Shown piece by piece: positions 3,471-58,438 of a stretch of 58,438 nt of DNA. The position numbers were made by a program, and so were the translations under genes. The DNA comes from Parcubacteria bacterium C7867-006. GTDB lineage: Bacteria; Patescibacteriota; Minisyncoccia; Phycocordibacterales; DATDWN01. The notes below the pieces were generated by a model that was given only the letters and a program-made list of their open reading frames with translations, was not told the DNA's origin and did not search any database. The stretch lies in NCBI GenBank assembly GCA_001189155.1, contig LFCP01000007.1:1-58438 (forward strand). Direction: 5' to 3'. Position 1 is the stretch's first letter, and each line of letters opens with the position of its first letter.

Positions 3471-3546
3471 GCGCCCGTAGCTCAGTCGGTAGAGCAGCTC
3501 CCTTTTAAGGAGAGGGTCGCAGGTTCGATTCCTGCCGGGCGCACCA
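3471..3546 (+). tRNA. tRNA-Lys (anticodon TTT), CCA encoded
   Basis: Cloverleaf with acceptor GCGCCCG/CGGGCGC, anticodon loop CTTTTAA, T-arm GCAGGTTCGATTCCTGC, and discriminator A followed by CCA. Confidence 0.93.
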
Positions 3547-7915: not shown

Positions 7916-7944
7916 AAAAAACCGCGAATCGCGGTTTTTTGTTT
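7916..7944 (+). terminator. Intrinsic terminator after rpsT
   Basis: AAAAAACCGCG-AAT-CGCGGTTTTTTGTTTT. Confidence 0.8.
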
Positions 7945-26144: not shown

Positions 26145-26567
26145 ATGATTTTAAAGGTTAAAAGGCTTGAGTCTGATGCGATTTTACCAAGTTATGCTCA
26201 TCCAGGTGATGCAGGTTTAGATATATATTCTGGTGAAGATTTAACTCTAGCTCCAGGAGAATCAGGAAAAGTAAAAACAGGTGTGTCATTAGAAATTCAA
26301 GATGGTTTCGTCGGTCTTGTTTGGGATAAAAGCGGTCTTTCAATAAATCATGGTATAAAGACATTGGGTGGTGTAGTTGATTCTGGGTACAGAGGAGAAA
26401 TTATGATAGGAGTGATAAATCTTGGTAAAGAGTCATACACGTTTGAAAAAGGTCACAAAGTAGCTCAAATGTTAATTCAAAAAATTGAAAGGGTAGAAGT
26501 CATCGAGTCAGATGAATTAAATGATACAAGTAGAGGAGTTGGAGGTTTTGGTAGTACTGGTAAATAG
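26145..26567 (+). CDS. dut: dUTP diphosphatase (trimeric dUTPase)
   Basis: The ATG at 26145 gives MILKVKRL... with motifs AGLDI, GVVDSGYRGEI and SRGVGGFGSTG. The tracked ORF start at 25983 lies in the GC-rich region antisense to folA. Confidence 0.92.
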   Translation: MILKVKRLESDAILPSYAHPGDAGLDIYSGEDLTLAPGESGKVKTGVSLEIQDGFVGLVWDKSGLSINHGIKTLGGVVDSGYRGEIMIGVINLGKESYTFEKGHKVAQMLIQKIERVEVIESDELNDTSRGVGGFGSTGK

Positions 26568-26580
26568 TTTGAAAAATAAA

Positions 26581-28284
26581 ATGAAAGAAGAAATAATAAA
26601 AAAAATTGAAGAGTTTCTGAAAGAAAAAGGAGTTCAAAATCCTAAAGTTAAATTGGCGCCTTCTGACTATTCAAAATTTTCTGCTGATTATTCGACAAAT
26701 GTCGCAATGGTTTATGCTAAGTTACTAAATATAAAACCCTCTGACTTGGCAATAGAAATTAGGCAATCGATAGAATCTCCCAGTCTTGGTAGAGTGCAAT
26801 CTAGTAATATTGATGGTTTCATCAATTTCTTTTTTGATAAAAAATATTTTGGAGATAATGTTTCAAAAATAATTGAGGAGGGGGGGAGGTTTGGAAAGAA
26901 CGAGAATCTAAAAGGTCAAAAGACTATCATTGAGTACACAGTGTGTAATGTATTAAAACCAATGCACATAGGTCACTTAATGGGTAATGTGATAGGAGAG
27001 TCACTTTCACGAATTATTGAAGCTGAGGGTGCCGAGGTTAAAAGAAACAACTACCAAGGTGATAGTGGGCTACATATTGCAAAAGCAGTATGGGGGATAA
27101 TAAAGTCTGGGGGAAAAATAGAAGGCAGTCTTTCAGAAAAAACAAAGTACATAGGTGATGCATATGCTCTAGGTTCTAATTCATATGATGATGATGAGAA
27201 TGCACAGAAGGAAATAAAAGAGTTGAATGAAAAAATATTTAAAAAAGAAGATGAAAATCTAAATGATATTTATAAGTGGGGAAGACAAGTTTCACTGGAT
27301 CATTTCGAAGAGTTGTATAAAAAGCTGGGCACAAAGTTTGATTATTATTTCTTTGAGAGTGAAGTTGCCGATAGTGCACTCACAATAGTTAGAGAGTTTT
27401 TGTTAAAAGGCGTATTTGAGGAGAGTGATGGCGCTGTTGTCTTCAAGGGTGAGAAGTATGATCCAAAGCTTCACACTAGAGTATTTATAAGCAGTCAGGG
27501 TATTCCTATGTATGAAGCAAAGGATATCGCCCATGCTCTACGAAAATATGAAACATATAAGTTTGATAAATCTATTATTGTTACTGCAAACGAGCAAAGT
27601 CAGTATTTCAAAGTTGTGCTGAGAGCCTTAAAAGAAGTTAACCCTGAAATAGCTGTAAAGACAGAGCACCTAGCGCATGGTATTTTAAAACTTCCAACAG
27701 GAAAGATGTCTTCTCGAAAAGGCAACACTATAACTGGAGAGACTCTGATAAATGATGTTGAGGAGATGGTCAGAGAAAAAATAAAAGATTCTGAATTTTC
27801 TGAATCAGAAAAAGATAACATTGCTGAATTGGTGGCGATAGGAGCGATAAAATATTCAATTCTTCATCAAGCTATCGGAGGGGATATTGTTTTTGATTTT
27901 GATAAGTCTATTTCATTTGAAGGAGACTCTGGTCCATATCTTCAGTACTCTGCTGTACGTGCAAACTCAATTTTGAAAAAAGCAGAGGGGGTGGTAAGTG
28001 TGTCAAAAAATATTCCAGATAGTTGGGAGACGACAAACTTAGAAAGAATTCTTGAGCGATTTCCAGATATTGTTGCTAGAGCAGGAAGTGAATACGCTCC
28101 GCACTACATAGCGACTTATCTTGTTGAACTAGCAGGGGAGTTCAACTCATTTTATGCTAGTCACAAAATAATAGACGAGGGGAATATAACTTCTCCATAT
28201 CGACTTACTCTTACGCAAGCTTTCTATCAAGTAATGCTTTCTGGATTAAATTTGCTCGGAATAAAAGTTCCAGAAAAAATGTAG
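26581..28284 (+). CDS. argS: Arginyl-tRNA synthetase
   Basis: 567 aa from the ATG at 26581. It has an HIGH motif (PMHIGHLMGN), an MSSRKG (KMSKS-like) motif and an Arg-tRNA anticodon-binding C-terminus. Confidence 0.92.
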   Translation: MKEEIIKKIEEFLKEKGVQNPKVKLAPSDYSKFSADYSTNVAMVYAKLLNIKPSDLAIEIRQSIESPSLGRVQSSNIDGFINFFFDKKYFGDNVSKIIEEGGRFGKNENLKGQKTIIEYTVCNVLKPMHIGHLMGNVIGESLSRIIEAEGAEVKRNNYQGDSGLHIAKAVWGIIKSGGKIEGSLSEKTKYIGDAYALGSNSYDDDENAQKEIKELNEKIFKKEDENLNDIYKWGRQVSLDHFEELYKKLGTKFDYYFFESEVADSALTIVREFLLKGVFEESDGAVVFKGEKYDPKLHTRVFISSQGIPMYEAKDIAHALRKYETYKFDKSIIVTANEQSQYFKVVLRALKEVNPEIAVKTEHLAHGILKLPTGKMSSRKGNTITGETLINDVEEMVREKIKDSEFSESEKDNIAELVAIGAIKYSILHQAIGGDIVFDFDKSISFEGDSGPYLQYSAVRANSILKKAEGVVSVSKNIPDSWETTNLERILERFPDIVARAGSEYAPHYIATYLVELAGEFNSFYASHKIIDEGNITSPYRLTLTQAFYQVMLSGLNLLGIKVPEKM

Positions 28285-28299
28285 TTATGCTATAGTATT

Positions 28300-28490
28300 T
28301 TTAGCGATTGAGGGGAATAATCAACCCCGAGCTAACTAGGAAGAAAGCCTGTTGGTGAGTAGAACCTAGCGGGTAAGCCCGTTATAGTTGTAATGAGATC
28401 TGTCGATAAGGCAGAAAACAAGGTGGTACCACGAAGAAATTCGTCCTTGCTTAGGAACAGTATGTTCCTGTGCGAGGACGAATTTTTTAT
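28300..28490 (+). promoter_or_regulatory. T-box leader (tRNA-sensing riboswitch) controlling ileS
   Basis: Conserved T-box core AACAAGGTGGTACCACG (28417-28433, UGGU bulge). It overlaps the 5' arm of a terminator pairing AAATTCGTCCT (28437-28447) with AGGACGAATTT (28475-28485), followed by a T-run. Stem I-like GGTGAGT and AGAAA elements lie at ~28340-28365. A TATAGT -10 box is at 28291. Confidence 0.75.
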
Positions 28491-28545: not shown

Positions 28546-31500
28546 ATGACCGAAGAAAATAAAAAAGGCGAGGTGGCTTTGAAAGAGGAGAAGATCCTTG
28601 AGTTTTGGAATGAAAATAAAATATTTGAAAAAACTTTGGACAAACCTGTTCATGAAAGTTTTCTTTCAAAAATTGGTTTAGGGGGACGAAAAGAGTTTGT
28701 ATTTTTTGAAGGTCCTCCAACAGCAAATGCAAAGCCAGCGCTCCACCACCTCGAGTCTCGAGTTTTTAAAGATATTATTCCTCGTTTCAAAACGATGCAG
28801 GGTTTTCATGTTAGGCGAAAAGCTGGTTGGGATACTCACGGACTTCCAGTTGAGTTGCAGATTGAGAAAAAACTTGGACTGAAATCTAAAAAAGAAATAG
28901 AAGCCTATGGTGTTGAGCAGTTCAATAAAGAGTGTAAAGACAGTGTTTTTACATATATTTCTGATTGGGAAAAGTTCACAGACAGAATAGGATACTGGGT
29001 TGATAAAAAGGATGCCTATTATACTTTTGATACACCATACATCGAGTCTGTTTGGAATATTTTGAAAACTGTAAACGAAAGAGGTTTGTTGTATAAGGAC
29101 TATAAAGTTTTGCCTTGGTGTCCACGATGTGGGACAGCCCTTTCTTCACACGAGTTGGCTCAAGGTTATCAGGATGATAAGGATTTGTCTGTTACTGCAA
29201 AGTTTAAAGTTGTCGGTGAGGATAACACGTATATACTCGCGTGGACTACTACACCTTGGACTTTACCAGGAAATGTTGCTTTAGCAATAGGGAAGGATAT
29301 TGAATATATAAGATATAAACAGAACGGTGAACAACTTATTATTGCAAAAGAATTGGCATCCAAATTTTTTCCAGATTTTGATCCTGAAAACAAAAATCAG
29401 TGGGAAAATATTTTTCAGAGTGAGCTTTTGAAGATGAGATACGAACCTCTCTATCCTTTTATGCAACAAAAGTTTGGAGACAAAAATCCAGAAGCATTTG
29501 CAAAAGCATACAAGGTATATGCTGCAGACTTTGTTACAACAACAGATGGAACTGGTATCGTTCACACAGCTGTTATGTATGGACAGGATGACTTTGTTTT
29601 GGGAAACCAGATCGGTTTACCGAAGTTTCACTTGGTAAAAGATGACGGTCATTATTTAGATGGAATGGATTTTCTTTCTGATAGGTTTGTAAAAGATGAG
29701 GAGGTAGCGGTTGATATTATAAAAGACCTAGCTCACAGAGGTTTGCTTTTCAAAAAAGAAAAGTATGAACACTCATACCCACATTGTTGGAGATGTAAAA
29801 CTCCACTTATCTACTACGCGAGAGACTCTTGGTATATATCAATGTCAAAACTCCGAAATGAATTGGTTGCAGAAAACGAGGGAATTGTTTGGGAACCAGC
29901 TCATATAAAAGAGGGACGTTTTGGCGAGTGGCTTCGCGAGATAAAAGACTGGGCGATTTCCAGAGAGAGGTATTGGGGAACACCACTTCCTATTTGGAAA
30001 AACGAGGAGGGAAAAATAAAAGTTATAGGAAGTGTTGATGAATTGAAAAAATATTCAAAAAAGTCTGGTAATAAGTATTTCATAATACGTCATGGAGAGG
30101 GAGAACATAATGTTGCAAATATAATCAGCTCTAAAAAAGATGATAATTTCCATCTGACAGAAAAGGGTAGAGAGCAGGTAAAAGTTTCTGCAGAGAGCTT
30201 AAAAGAAAAGGGAATTACAAAAATTATTTCATCTCCTTTTGTAAGGACTGTGGAGACCGCTGAAATAGTCAGAGAGATTTTAGGTTTAGAGAAAGATAAA
30301 GTTTCTTTTGATGATAGATTGGGAGAACATAATCTAGGAACATTAAGTGGACAGAGTGTTGATGAGTATCACAAAATAGCAAAGACAGATGAGGGCATAT
30401 ATGAAATGAAAGCTGGTGGAGGAGAGAGTCTTTTTGATGTTAAGGTTCGAACAGGACAGTTTATCTATGAGGCAGACAGAGCAAATCAAAACGAAACGAT
30501 ACTTATAATTGCGCATGAACATACAGCGTGGGCTTTGGAGTCTGCTGCATATGGATATAACAAAAAACAGACTGTTGATTTCGCAAAAGATAAAGAAGAG
30601 TTTATAAAAACTGCAGAGATTCATGAATTAGATTTTGTTCAGTTACCACATAACGCGAGCTACGAGGTTGATTTGCATAAACCATATATAGATGGTGTTG
30701 AGCTTGTAGATGAAGATGGAAACACTCTTACTCGTGTAAAAGAAGTTATGGATGTTTGGTTTGATTCTGGAGCTATGCCTTTTGCTCAAGATCATTATCC
30801 TTGGAACAAAGGAGAGCTTTTGTACCCAGCAGATTTTATTTCAGAAGCAATAGATCAAACAAGAGGCTGGTTTTATACACTTCACGCTATAGGAGTTTTG
30901 ATGGGTAAGGGTAAAGCCTATAAAAATGTTATTTGTTTAGGTCATATTCTAGATTCTGAAGGTAAAAAAATGTCTAAGTCAGTAGGAAATATTATAGACC
31001 CATGGTTAATGATGGATAAATACGGAGTAGATGCTCTGCGTTTATGGATGTACACAGTTAATAGCCCTGGAGATTCAAAAAACTTTGATGAGAAAACAGT
31101 GGATGAAATTGTAAAAAAAGTTTTCAATCCACTTCTAAATATTGTTGCTTTTTATGAGTTGTATAAAGATGAGAGTATTGTTGCACACAATAAAAGCGAA
31201 AATATTTTGGATAAATGGATACTGTCACGACTAAACGAGCTTTTGAAAAATGGAACAACATCACTAGAAAAGTTCCAAGTTTTTGAATCCGCACGTCCTA
31301 TTAGGGATTTCACAAATGATTTTTCAACTTGGTATGTTCGTAGATCAAGAGAAAGATTTAAATCAGATGATGCAAAAGAAAAAAGCGATGCTTTGGGTAC
31401 AACATTGTTTGTGCTTAAAGAGTTAGCAAAATATATGGCGCCATTCACTCCATTTTTTGCCGAGGAAATCTATCAGAAAATTAAGTCACCAGATGATGCA

Positions 31501-32010
31501 GAGAGTATACATCTTTGTGTGTGGCCAGAGGTGGGAGAAGTTAATACTGAAATAATAGATAGTATGAAAAAGGTTCGGGAGGTTGTAACTTCGGCACTAG
31601 AGATAAGACAAAAATCAGGACACAAGGTTCGACAGCCACTAGCAAAACTTTCTATTCCAGAGAATCTTTCACAGGAACTTCTGGATATTATTGCGGATGA
31701 AGTAAATGTAAAACAGGTTGTTATAGAAGGAACTGAAGTGAAGCTGGACACCGAACTAACAGATGGTTTAAAGAAAGAGGGAATAGCTCGAGATATTATT
31801 CGAGCAATTCAGGATGCAAGAAAGAAAGAAAACCTAAACCCAAGTGACGCGATAAAACTAGTAGTAAGTACAGACAAAAAAGAAATAGTAAATGAATATA
31901 TGGAAATGATAAAATCTCCAACTGGGGTGACTGAAATATCATACTCAAACGATGAGCAAAACTACGTTGTTGAGGTTGAAGGTAAGACATCTTTCTCTGT
32001 GATAAAGTAG
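28546..32010 (+). CDS. ileS: Isoleucyl-tRNA synthetase (type 2-like) with an inserted histidine-phosphatase domain
   Basis: 1154 aa with a CP1 editing domain (TTPWTLPGN), WAISRERYWGTPLPIW and KMSKS. Residues ~510-700 (nt 30073-30645) carry RHGEGEHN, SSPFVRTVETA, GEHNLG and IIAHEHT, which is the phosphoglycerate-mutase-like phosphatase signature. Confidence 0.93.
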   Translation: MTEENKKGEVALKEEKILEFWNENKIFEKTLDKPVHESFLSKIGLGGRKEFVFFEGPPTANAKPALHHLESRVFKDIIPRFKTMQGFHVRRKAGWDTHGLPVELQIEKKLGLKSKKEIEAYGVEQFNKECKDSVFTYISDWEKFTDRIGYWVDKKDAYYTFDTPYIESVWNILKTVNERGLLYKDYKVLPWCPRCGTALSSHELAQGYQDDKDLSVTAKFKVVGEDNTYILAWTTTPWTLPGNVALAIGKDIEYIRYKQNGEQLIIAKELASKFFPDFDPENKNQWENIFQSELLKMRYEPLYPFMQQKFGDKNPEAFAKAYKVYAADFVTTTDGTGIVHTAVMYGQDDFVLGNQIGLPKFHLVKDDGHYLDGMDFLSDRFVKDEEVAVDIIKDLAHRGLLFKKEKYEHSYPHCWRCKTPLIYYARDSWYISMSKLRNELVAENEGIVWEPAHIKEGRFGEWLREIKDWAISRERYWGTPLPIWKNEEGKIKVIGSVDELKKYSKKSGNKYFIIRHGEGEHNVANIISSKKDDNFHLTEKGREQVKVSAESLKEKGITKIISSPFVRTVETAEIVREILGLEKDKVSFDDRLGEHNLGTLSGQSVDEYHKIAKTDEGIYEMKAGGGESLFDVKVRTGQFIYEADRANQNETILIIAHEHTAWALESAAYGYNKKQTVDFAKDKEEFIKTAEIHELDFVQLPHNASYEVDLHKPYIDGVELVDEDGNTLTRVKEVMDVWFDSGAMPFAQDHYPWNKGELLYPADFISEAIDQTRGWFYTLHAIGVLMGKGKAYKNVICLGHILDSEGKKMSKSVGNIIDPWLMMDKYGVDALRLWMYTVNSPGDSKNFDEKTVDEIVKKVFNPLLNIVAFYELYKDESIVAHNKSENILDKWILSRLNELLKNGTTSLEKFQVFESARPIRDFTNDFSTWYVRRSRERFKSDDAKEKSDALGTTLFVLKELAKYMAPFTPFFAEEIYQKIKSPDDAESIHLCVWPEVGEVNTEIIDSMKKVREVVTSALEIRQKSGHKVRQPLAKLSIPENLSQELLDIIADEVNVKQVVIEGTEVKLDTELTDGLKKEGIARDIIRAIQDARKKENLNPSDAIKLVVSTDKKEIVNEYMEMIKSPTGVTEISYSNDEQNYVVEVEGKTSFSVIK

Positions 32011-56149: not shown

Positions 56150-58438
<2,289 letters not shown>

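Follow-up and report, generated by a model that had tools for sequence, protein, structure and literature searches.

What is a complete phosphatase doing inside an isoleucyl-tRNA synthetase (IleRS)? This question is raised by a 58,438 nt stretch of DNA from Parcubacteria bacterium C7867-006 (assembly GCA_001189155.1, contig LFCP01000007.1, positions 1 to 58,438 of the forward strand), the whole of which is referred to here as the window. Aminoacyl-tRNA synthetases are highly conserved and well studied, and extra catalytic domains are rare among them in bacteria. A preliminary description of the window, made from the sequence alone, had placed a complete histidine phosphatase in frame within ileS. 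That placement was borne out: a single open reading frame (ORF), 28546–32010 on the + strand, contains a match to the Pfam family His_Phos_1 (E value 1.3e–29) within a split match to tRNA-synt_1. The comparative data presented below show the same enzyme in relatives either fused to IleRS or encoded next to it, and argue, with some reserve, for a partnership between the two activities.

The host gene encodes a type-2 IleRS

The gene and the parts of the synthetase are located as follows.

28546–32010, + strand: type-2 IleRS (IleRS2) ORF with an internal histidine phosphatase, 1154 aa, the end including the stop codon (ORF list, TIGR00392 and Pfam)
28546–30057, + strand: N-terminal part of IleRS, aa 1–504; first Rossmann/HUP half, connective peptide 1 (CP1)/editing domain and connective peptide as far as the former zinc-knuckle hairpin
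28738–28749, + strand: ALHH, aa 65–68; non-canonical G/AXHH form of the class I HIGH signature
30646–32007, + strand: C-terminal part of IleRS, aa 701–1154; remainder of the hairpin, second Rossmann half, KMSKS, anticodon-binding domain and type-2 C-terminal domain
30967–30981, + strand: KMSKS, aa 808–812; K808, M809 and K811 in 81/81 and S810 in 80/81 orthologues

When the ORF was scanned against NCBIfam, the ileS model TIGR00392 scored 862.6 bits (cutoff 621.4) in two stretches separated by the insert, and the second-ranked models were those of the mupirocin-resistant type-2 enzymes MupA and MupB. Pfam matches comprised tRNA-synt_1, split around His_Phos_1, Anticodon_1 (aa 889–1032) and DUF5915 (aa 1041–1147). 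The two parts of the synthetase, aa 1–504 and aa 701–1154, were aligned with residues 35–478 and 479–984, respectively, of the IleRS2 of Priestia megaterium (PmIleRS2), and chains 1wk8 and 1wny matched the CP1 editing domain (aa 207–413, E value 7e–26). A full-length AlphaFold2 (AF2) model, with an alignment of 68 sequences as input, had a predicted local distance difference test score (pLDDT) of 86.9 and a predicted template modelling score (pTM) of 0.79. The IleRS body of that model superposes on insert-less IleRS2, with Foldseek template modelling (TM) scores, normalized to target length, of 0.82 to 8c8v and 0.91 to 1ile. The ORF is classified on these matches as a type-2 isoleucyl-tRNA synthetase, the housekeeping enzyme of a member of the Paceibacteria, within the candidate phyla radiation (CPR), and isoleucylation and the editing of valine are predicted for it.

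The HIGH signature had been described as unusual. It is not, as ALHH belongs to the published G/AXHH form, a widespread IleRS2 signature that confers mupirocin hyper-resistance (Brkić et al. 2023, PMC10485003). Among the 81 orthologues, GIHH was found in 40, the canonical HYGH in 21 and ALHH in eight.

The insert is an apparently active branch-1 histidine phosphatase

30058–30645, + strand: inserted domain with its linkers, aa 505–700 (196 residues); no counterpart in solved IleRS2 structures
30079–30582, + strand: Pfam His_Phos_1 (PF00300), aa 512–679; E value 5.2e–28 in context, 1.3e–29 for the excised insert
30088–30111, + strand: RHGEGEHN, aa 515–522; catalytic Arg515, nucleophile His516, Asn522
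30229–30261, + strand: SSPFVRTVETA, aa 562–572; second phosphate-binding Arg567
30319–30339, + strand: LGEHNLG, aa 592–598; general acid Glu594
30505–30525, + strand: IIAHEHT, aa 654–660; second catalytic His657

The limits of the insert were set by HMMER alignment to 8c8w, the nearest solved IleRS2 (772 bits). The alignment jumps from query residue 504 (chain residue 478) to query residue 701 (chain residue 479), and the insert is therefore taken to be aa 505–700. The limits proposed earlier, 30073–30645, have the identical end and a start that lies 15 nt too far downstream. The Pfam check of the domain borders suggested in the preliminary description puts His_Phos_1 inside tRNA-synt_1, and the four phosphatase motifs that it quoted are all present at the places it gave. 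PF00300 was matched at 98.5 bits in context and at 103.7 bits by the insert alone, compared with a gathering score of 21.7. The host-like, AT-rich composition that had been noted was also confirmed, with a G+C content of 0.350 in the insert and 0.366 in the IleRS body; G+C contents at third codon positions (GC3) match likewise. These data point to a complete branch-1 histidine phosphatase, its catalytic set intact, that is apparently active.

An AF2 model of the insert alone had a pLDDT of 92.4 and a pTM of 0.90. When that model was submitted to Foldseek, 4ij6, 4qih and 1h2e were matched with TM scores of 0.76–0.82 at a probability of 1.00. The best fold matches were to PspA (root-mean-square deviation [rmsd] 2.2 Å), the glucosyl-3-phosphoglycerate phosphatase Rv2419c (TM approximately 0.8), HFP of the riboflavin pathway, and PhoE, while the sequence profile of the insert ranked PhoE first (1e–51), followed by PspA, CobC and GpgP. 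None of the models for specific small phosphatases reached its cutoff (CobC 68.6 versus 162.9 bits, PspA 58.8 versus 350, SixA 38.5 versus 74.5, GpmB 59.5 versus 261). Phosphoglycerate mutase was considered and rejected, as NF038349 scored 88 versus 225 bits and TIGR01258 30.9 versus 81.7, the remaining models for the cofactor-dependent mutases (dPGM) scored below 60 bits versus cutoffs above 260, and the fold neighbours are phosphatases. The insert, being an internal domain, has no free C-terminal tail. By sequence and predicted fold, the insert is assigned as a PhoE/PspA-like phosphatase, not a mutase, and falls outside the characterized specific subfamilies.

The insertion falls within the connective peptide that follows the editing domain (CP2/CP3), approximately 35 residues ahead of the second Rossmann half, as judged from the HUP catalytic core of PmIleRS2, which comprises residues 40–168 and 513–632 (PMC10485003). 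The domain is thus inside IleRS, as had been reported, but not among the Rossmann core strands of its catalytic body. This connective-peptide region moves to let in the CCA end of the tRNA (PMC11685878). The insert and both of its junctions are mostly above pLDDT 90 in the full-length model, which suggests a domain docked on IleRS and not a floppy tether. The surface hairpin that hosts it is a Cys4 zinc knuckle in PmIleRS2 and several relatives. Although the knuckle cysteines have been lost from the window protein (aa 483–492 and 720–729; nt 29992–30021 and 30703–30732), they are kept alongside the insert in 20 of the 81 fused orthologues, and the insert is thus not a simple replacement for the zinc site.

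The fusion is widespread and under purifying selection

The GTDB was scanned, with one genome per species, using a profile of the junction region. This yielded 442 relatives, of which the best 80 were inspected; in these, flank, insert and flank were matched contiguously. With the full 1154-aa query, tblastn gave one unbroken frame in nearly all of the best 80, at 41–85% identity. The survey of IleRS orthologues that had been recommended therefore places the fusion in at least 80 GTDB species of Paceibacteria/Parcubacteria, under record names that include Zambryski-, Nomura-, Vogel-, Campbell-, Wolfe- and Kaiserbacteria, Paceibacterota, Minisyncoccia and 'Patescibacteria group'; these names are in keeping with a CPR origin of the window, and many of the records carry the automatic label 'uncultured Candidatus Saccharibacteria'. 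When 1.84 billion representative sequences were searched exhaustively with HMMER, 273 clusters (50% identity) were obtained at E values of 1e–30 or lower, the best 150 of which were all fusions. In a full-length search, PF00300 was present in every one of 120 matches (57–100% identity). The fused proteins in public data are annotated simply as IleRS or as 'class I tRNA ligase family protein'.

Among the 81 aligned orthologues, R515, H516, R567 and H657 are invariant (81/81), E594 is present in 80 (one has Asp) and N522 in 79. This conservation, together with the fold similarity to phosphatases (TM 0.76–0.82), is not that of an ordinary connective-peptide variant lacking catalytic geometry, an outcome that had been named as a possible refutation. 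The insert diverges faster than its host, with a mean identity among orthologues of 45% versus 55–60% for the body. Values of dN/dS were usable for the two closest pairs only, more distant pairs being saturated; they were 0.07–0.10 for the insert and 0.05–0.09 for the body, and are rough since dS exceeded 1. The pattern of substitution indicates that the insert is under purifying selection.

These observations bear on whether the insert might be a mis-assembly, a selfish mobile element, or a degenerate domain that merely stabilizes a hairpin deprived of its zinc ligands. Such an origin might be suggested by the fact that the window protein no longer has the Cys4 knuckle found on either side of the site in other IleRS2 enzymes, and by a His-Asn dipeptide at the C-terminal junction. 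The coexistence of cysteines and insert in 20 of the 81 orthologues speaks against a structural filler, however, as do the invariant catalytic residues and the purifying selection. An assembly chimera or pseudogene in the window was rejected, in agreement with the preliminary description, because a single frame runs through body, insert and body in about 80 orthologues from independent assemblies; the same in-frame architecture recurs in many metagenomes. An intein or mobile element was likewise rejected: Pfam revealed no Hint/intein domain at E values of 0.01 or lower, the junctions share no words of 8 nt or longer, the G+C and GC3 contents match those of the host gene, and the fold is that of a histidine phosphatase. 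The earlier dismissal of an intein was accordingly right, but one of its grounds, the absence of a His-Asn junction, was not, as H702-N703 is present at the C-terminal junction; the next residue is Ala, and the dipeptide aligns with IleRS residues. Taken together, these data leave explanations of this kind scarcely credible.

Broken gene calls in three of the loci (L001, L003 and L176) occur in visibly noisy assemblies, with TAA for TCA, a frameshift in a run of A and fragmented neighbouring genes. In L001 (GCA_034680565.1), the syntenic fused IleRS has an in-frame TAA at 7932, where the window has Ser (TCA), and an A-run frameshift at approximately 8891. These interruptions are probably assembly noise, although they may represent recent pseudogenization.

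In relatives without the insert, the phosphatase is a separate gene upstream of ileS

The nearest free-standing homologue of the insert (P0004, 40% identity) is encoded in locus L086, downstream of the gene for arginyl-tRNA synthetase (ArgRS), and ends 17 nt ahead of an insert-less IleRS with an intact zinc knuckle. In locus L091, the order is ArgRS, a small ORF, phosphatase (P0016), alternative oxidase (AOX), insert-less IleRS, RecO and a CLIPPER-like protein. The anchor of the corresponding block in the window is:

26521–28284, + strand: ArgRS gene (Pfam tRNA-synt_1d, DALR_1 and Arg_tRNA_synt_N); upstream anchor of the conserved block

The window has the synteny ArgRS, IleRS, RecO and DUF11 protein, and the block order of ArgRS, the free phosphatase gene (in some relatives), IleRS, RecO and DUF11/CLIPPER protein was seen in L001, L086 and L091. 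The arrangement in L091 is that of the window with the phosphatase as a separate gene. The 261-nt spacer between ArgRS and IleRS in the window contained no remnant of a free phosphatase gene.

Metagenomes were then scanned using free-standing phosphatase genes as seeds, which yielded 80 loci with 36 fused and 47 free-standing phosphatase ORFs. It is apparent that the free-standing gene is strongly associated with ileS: 41 of the 47 are upstream of an IleRS gene on the same strand, 30 of these 41 within 300 nt and typically within 12–40 nt. Of the six that have no IleRS in the locus, five are short-flanked. Six of the downstream genes were checked, and all six encode IleRS (TIGR00392, 723–985 bits). 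The IleRS enzymes concerned span several HIGH-motif subtypes (GIHH, GVHH and HYGH), and the catalytic residues are retained in all 46 of the free-standing neighbours (46/46). The two states were never found together: 46 of the metagenomic loci have only the free form, 34 only the fused form and none has both. Around the 80 fused GTDB loci, likewise, no free copy was found over a distance of 6 kb. A gene that is either fused to its neighbour or adjacent to it combines a Rosetta-stone pattern with a conserved neighbourhood and, at the level of sequence comparison, is a standard comparative-genomic sign of functional partnership. It is also the strongest clue to function, and one that the sequence of the window by itself could not reveal.

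Some genes in these neighbourhoods were of interest in themselves. The AOX gene of L091 (5564–6343), between the free phosphatase gene and ileS, is unexpected in a presumed fermentative CPR bacterium. A free-standing relative of the phosphatase (P0062, L092–L094) lies in a tight cassette composed of an unknown 390-aa protein, His_Phos and Abi_2 (abortive infection), and an AbiEii-like gene (L086, 3324–3878) is located between ArgRS and the phosphatase. The Abi_2 and AbiEii-like neighbours may hint at a link of the phosphatase to defence or toxin systems.

The phosphatase has entered synthetases repeatedly

The alignments place the phosphatase domain at no fewer than four positions in IleRS.

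Site A: the site in the window protein, first loop of the hairpin
Site A2: second loop of the site-A hairpin
Site B: between WFDSG and DQTRGWF, second Rossmann half
Site C: between the stem-contact fold and the anticodon-binding domain

The combinations A+A2, A+B, A+C and B+C were seen, and a 1655-aa IleRS (L154, 3556–8520) has His_Phos at A, B and C together. IleRS proteins with two or three catalytically intact His_Phos domains are those of L154, P0125, P0144, P0150, P0155, P0132, P0134 and P0184. The catalytic set is complete in almost all full copies, the exceptions being one copy in P0118 (Asn to Ala) and that in P0261 (acid Glu to Asn). A fusion at the N terminus was not encountered, despite the position of the free gene directly upstream.

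When compared with the IleRS body of the window, a protein with the domain at site C only (P0242) scored 846 bits, HYGH-type fusions at site A scored 600–794 and the insert-less PmIleRS2 scored 772. In addition, a crude neighbour-joining tree of the phosphatase copies separated A, B(+C), A2 and valyl-tRNA synthetase (ValRS) clusters, although this tree is without support values and is a hint only. Several independent insertions are the simplest reading.

Further variants were seen. ValRS sequences with one to four internal His_Phos domains were found (P0118, P0394–P0398 and L176, 5369–9188), all of them in fragments or noisy assemblies, and these fusions look rarer than those of IleRS. In P0261, a GNAT domain (aa 606–690) has been inserted at site B together with His_Phos (aa 723–891). 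P0208 has a weak P-loop kinase-like domain at site B (aa 737–869; AAA_18, AAA_33 and Zeta_toxin, all below cutoff in Pfam) in addition to a phosphatase at site A. The B+C IleRS P0150 (L085; contig ctg43262, ERZ25074195; relatives on contigs up to 1.06 Mb) is encoded near adenylosuccinate synthase, DAHP synthase, SufBD and an SLH-domain protein. As this gene content is atypical of the CPR, the association may extend beyond that group.

A T-box-like leader precedes the fused gene

28298–28451, + strand: T-box-like leader with a much-shortened Stem I (Rfam RF00230), followed by a terminator-like hairpin and T-run to approximately 28490

This leader occupies the spacer between ArgRS and IleRS. The default Rfam scan missed it; over the full span of the model, RF00230 gave 55.9 bits (E value 9.5e–12), under the gathering score of 93, and Stem I covers 5 versus 72 model positions. 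Of 69 orthologous genes for the fused enzyme, 23 are preceded by the T-box core GGTGGTACCRCG. Control of the fused gene by sensing of tRNA-Ile is probable, though putative. Co-regulation of the free phosphatase by the ileS T-box was considered but found no support, as no T-box core was found upstream of the tightly linked phosphatase genes in a simple motif search that allowed one mismatch, from which diverged leaders would escape.

A partnership between phosphatase and synthetase, and its alternatives

Because the free gene lies upstream of and adjacent to ileS, because the free and fused states exclude one another, and because the domain has entered several loops of IleRS as well as ValRS, the phosphatase would seem to be a dedicated partner of IleRS and not a passenger. 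We consider it rather probable that this partnership is mechanistic, the two activities working together as one unit. According to this proposal, IleRS2 would have absorbed its own partner enzyme, such that the product of the upstream gene is now a folded domain in the connective-peptide hairpin. The synthetase would charge tRNA-Ile as usual, while the phosphatase, held beside the synthetic site, would form a phospho-His516 intermediate and hydrolyse a phosphomonoester carried by a molecule on its way into or out of that site. The leading candidate substrate is a phosphomonoester of nucleotide type, on either a small ligand or the 3′-terminal nucleotide of tRNA-Ile; a phosphorylated residue on the synthetase itself is the second candidate. 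A small ligand is favoured since the fold neighbours are small-molecule phosphatases, and the tRNA 3′ nucleotide is conceivable since the insert adjoins the mobile CP region that admits the CCA end. A stronger version can only be put forward tentatively, and is clearly less probable than a partnership as such: in much of the CPR, the phosphatase would be an accessory subunit that IleRS, and sometimes ValRS, cannot do without, and would perform a hitherto unrecognized step coupled to aminoacylation. That step might possibly consist in clearing a phosphate that blocks the 3′ end of tRNA-Ile, reversing a shut-off by a kinase, or destroying a phosphorylated inhibitor at the active site.

Several observations weigh against a mechanistic partnership. 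The nearest solved relatives (PspA, GpgP, HFP, PhoE and CobC) are ordinary small-molecule metabolic phosphatases, the fused copies have no active-site residues beyond those of the free-standing copies, and the sequence itself offers no pointer to tRNA or protein substrates. No branch-1 histidine phosphatase that acts on RNA ends was found in a search of the literature, and the presence of several copies in one protein is hard to explain with a single docked macromolecular substrate. Furthermore, a T-box lies between the phosphatase gene and ileS in seven loosely linked loci (approximately 0.7–1.3 kb); because of this position, the two genes are not obviously co-regulated there.

The main alternative is that the phosphatase is an uncoupled housekeeping enzyme, acting on small molecules such as sugar phosphates, phosphoserine or nucleotides, whose gene chanced to be the neighbour of ileS in an ancestor and was internalized neutrally or for dosage. 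Fusion would then bring co-expression in a very small genome and nothing more, and the reaction catalysed would be unrelated to isoleucylation. The metabolic roles of the closest solved homologues by both profile and fold would be accounted for in this way, as would the conserved residues, which are the generic family set, the failure of the T-box to cover the loosely linked free gene, and the similar free-standing phosphatases that occur in other contexts (e.g. L089 and L095). It is more difficult to reconcile with adjacency across divergent IleRS2 subtypes (GIHH, GVHH and HYGH), with the strict mutual exclusion of the free and fused states, with insertion at no fewer than three or four different sites, with the presence of several catalytically intact copies in one protein, and with the parallel association with ValRS. 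Simple neutral fusion is also disfavoured by the lack of N-terminal read-through fusions, which might be expected of a gene located directly upstream. We therefore disfavour this explanation and regard it as unlikely.

More specific roles can also be envisaged. Toxins that block the 3′ ends of tRNAs exist, and the phosphatase might heal such ends, removing a 3′-phosphate, 2′,3′-cyclic phosphate or 3′-pyrophosphate from damaged or toxin-modified tRNA-Ile before charging. Its insertion in the connective-peptide region that moves for the CCA end (PMC11685878) would suit this role, and the weak P-loop kinase-like domain of P0208 recalls the kinase-phosphatase enzymes of end healing. However, the literature search returned no precedent on RNA ends within the family, the insert is not notably basic in sequence, a general repair enzyme would not be expected to pair with IleRS specifically, and one 3′ end cannot be within reach of three copies that are located in different loops; end healing is accordingly considered improbable. 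A protein phosphatase directed at the synthetase itself, which would clear inhibitory phosphorylation (e.g. of the KMSKS loop) and so confer resistance to kinase shut-off, appears more improbable still. HipA-type toxin kinases do hit the KMSKS loop of other synthetases, and SixA and Sts, members of the same superfamily, are protein phosphatases. So is PGAM5, of that superfamily also (PMC6429109). Where copies occupy several loops around the catalytic domain, each could act on the sites closest to it, and one close free-standing homologue is encoded near a Hanks-type kinase gene. On the other hand, the cap is as in small-molecule enzymes, the best matches are not protein phosphatases, SixA itself being below cutoff (38.5 versus 74.5 bits), and the loci examined show no conserved kinase in the vicinity of the module. 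A literature search on HipA and KMSKS phosphorylation found nothing relevant.

Comparison with known systems

PmIleRS2 (8c8u, 8c8v and 8c8w; PMC10485003) is the best whole-body match of the window IleRS (772 bits, TM 0.82). The two share the domain order of HUP core, CP1/editing, CP2, anticodon-binding and type-2 C-terminal domains, and the published A/GXHH variant covers the ALHH of the window protein. They differ in that residues 478 and 479 of PmIleRS2 directly follow one another, while the window protein has 196 residues at this point; PmIleRS2 also keeps the zinc-knuckle cysteines that the window protein has lost, and has no associated phosphatase. The small branch-1 phosphatases PhoE (1EBB/1H2E), PspA (4IJ5), Rv2419c (4PZ9/4QIH), HFP (9MMH) and CobC resemble the insert in fold (TM 0.76–0.82, rmsd 2.2–2.8 Å), in the Arg-His-Asn/Arg/Glu/His set, in size and in their small cap. 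Those enzymes, in contrast, are free-standing and mostly dimeric metabolic enzymes of 20–29% identity, whereas the insert is tied to IleRS, be it as an internal domain or, in relatives, as the product of the upstream gene.

Enzymes with added domains provide looser parallels. NF040702 (ileS_w_GNAT) is a curated IleRS family with an extra enzyme domain, comparable to the GNAT plus His_Phos of P0261, but the added enzyme is GNAT and the window protein is not a member (320.5 bits versus a cutoff of 1999); no paper on this GNAT-containing architecture was found. In the bifunctional RNase H/acid phosphatase of the Rv2228c type (NF005567), a CobC/PhoE-like phosphatase is fused to a nucleic-acid enzyme. 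That fusion is end to end and with a different partner enzyme, and the insert, which matches the phosphatase half at 66.8 bits, is far under the model cutoff (326). Lineage-specific modules inserted in class Ia synthetases, such as the leucine-specific domain of leucyl-tRNA synthetase, CP2/CP3 and the INS subdomain of IleRS2 (preprint 10.64898/2026.02.03.703510), are likewise surface-loop extras, of the catalytic or anticodon-binding domains, and can tune tRNA handling. They are small and non-enzymatic, however, while the insert in the window is a complete enzyme that is a separate gene in relatives.

No paper was found on an IleRS, or any aminoacyl-tRNA synthetase, with a histidine phosphatase, either fused or operonic, and this includes the recent preprint on IleRS domain evolution. 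The preliminary description was therefore justified in calling the architecture undescribed, but it is not rare, as a large family is present in public data. Both domain families, the occurrence of extra modules in class Ia synthetases and the G/AXHH motif are known; what is new is a complete second enzyme as an operon partner of, or inserted in, IleRS across a large clade of the CPR. The comparative-genomic signal for a functional link is strong, and is undescribed in the literature found. If the link is mechanistic, it would amount to a hitherto unknown accessory step in tRNA charging, or to a novel way of protecting that process, and would explain part of the unusual biology of the ultra-small CPR symbionts. 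Were the phosphatase an obligatory subunit, this would be a 'two-enzyme' aminoacylation system that has repeatedly been hard-wired into one polypeptide. Even if co-expression alone is involved, the separate gene and the three insertion sites form a natural series for the study of domain insertion in an essential enzyme.

Other features of the window

ARAGORN called a 'tRNA-Stop (tta)' at 3471–3546 on the + strand. A suppressor tRNA was rejected in favour of tRNA-Lys(UUU), with the ARAGORN register off by one, since the anticodon loop is CUUUUAA and the arms look like those of a standard bacterial tRNA-Lys. A 23S rRNA gene (56150–58438, + strand) is cut by the end of the window; its 2289 nt correspond to model positions 1–2054, and the approximately 235 extra nt may represent an insertion or an intron, such as have been reported for the rRNAs of the CPR.

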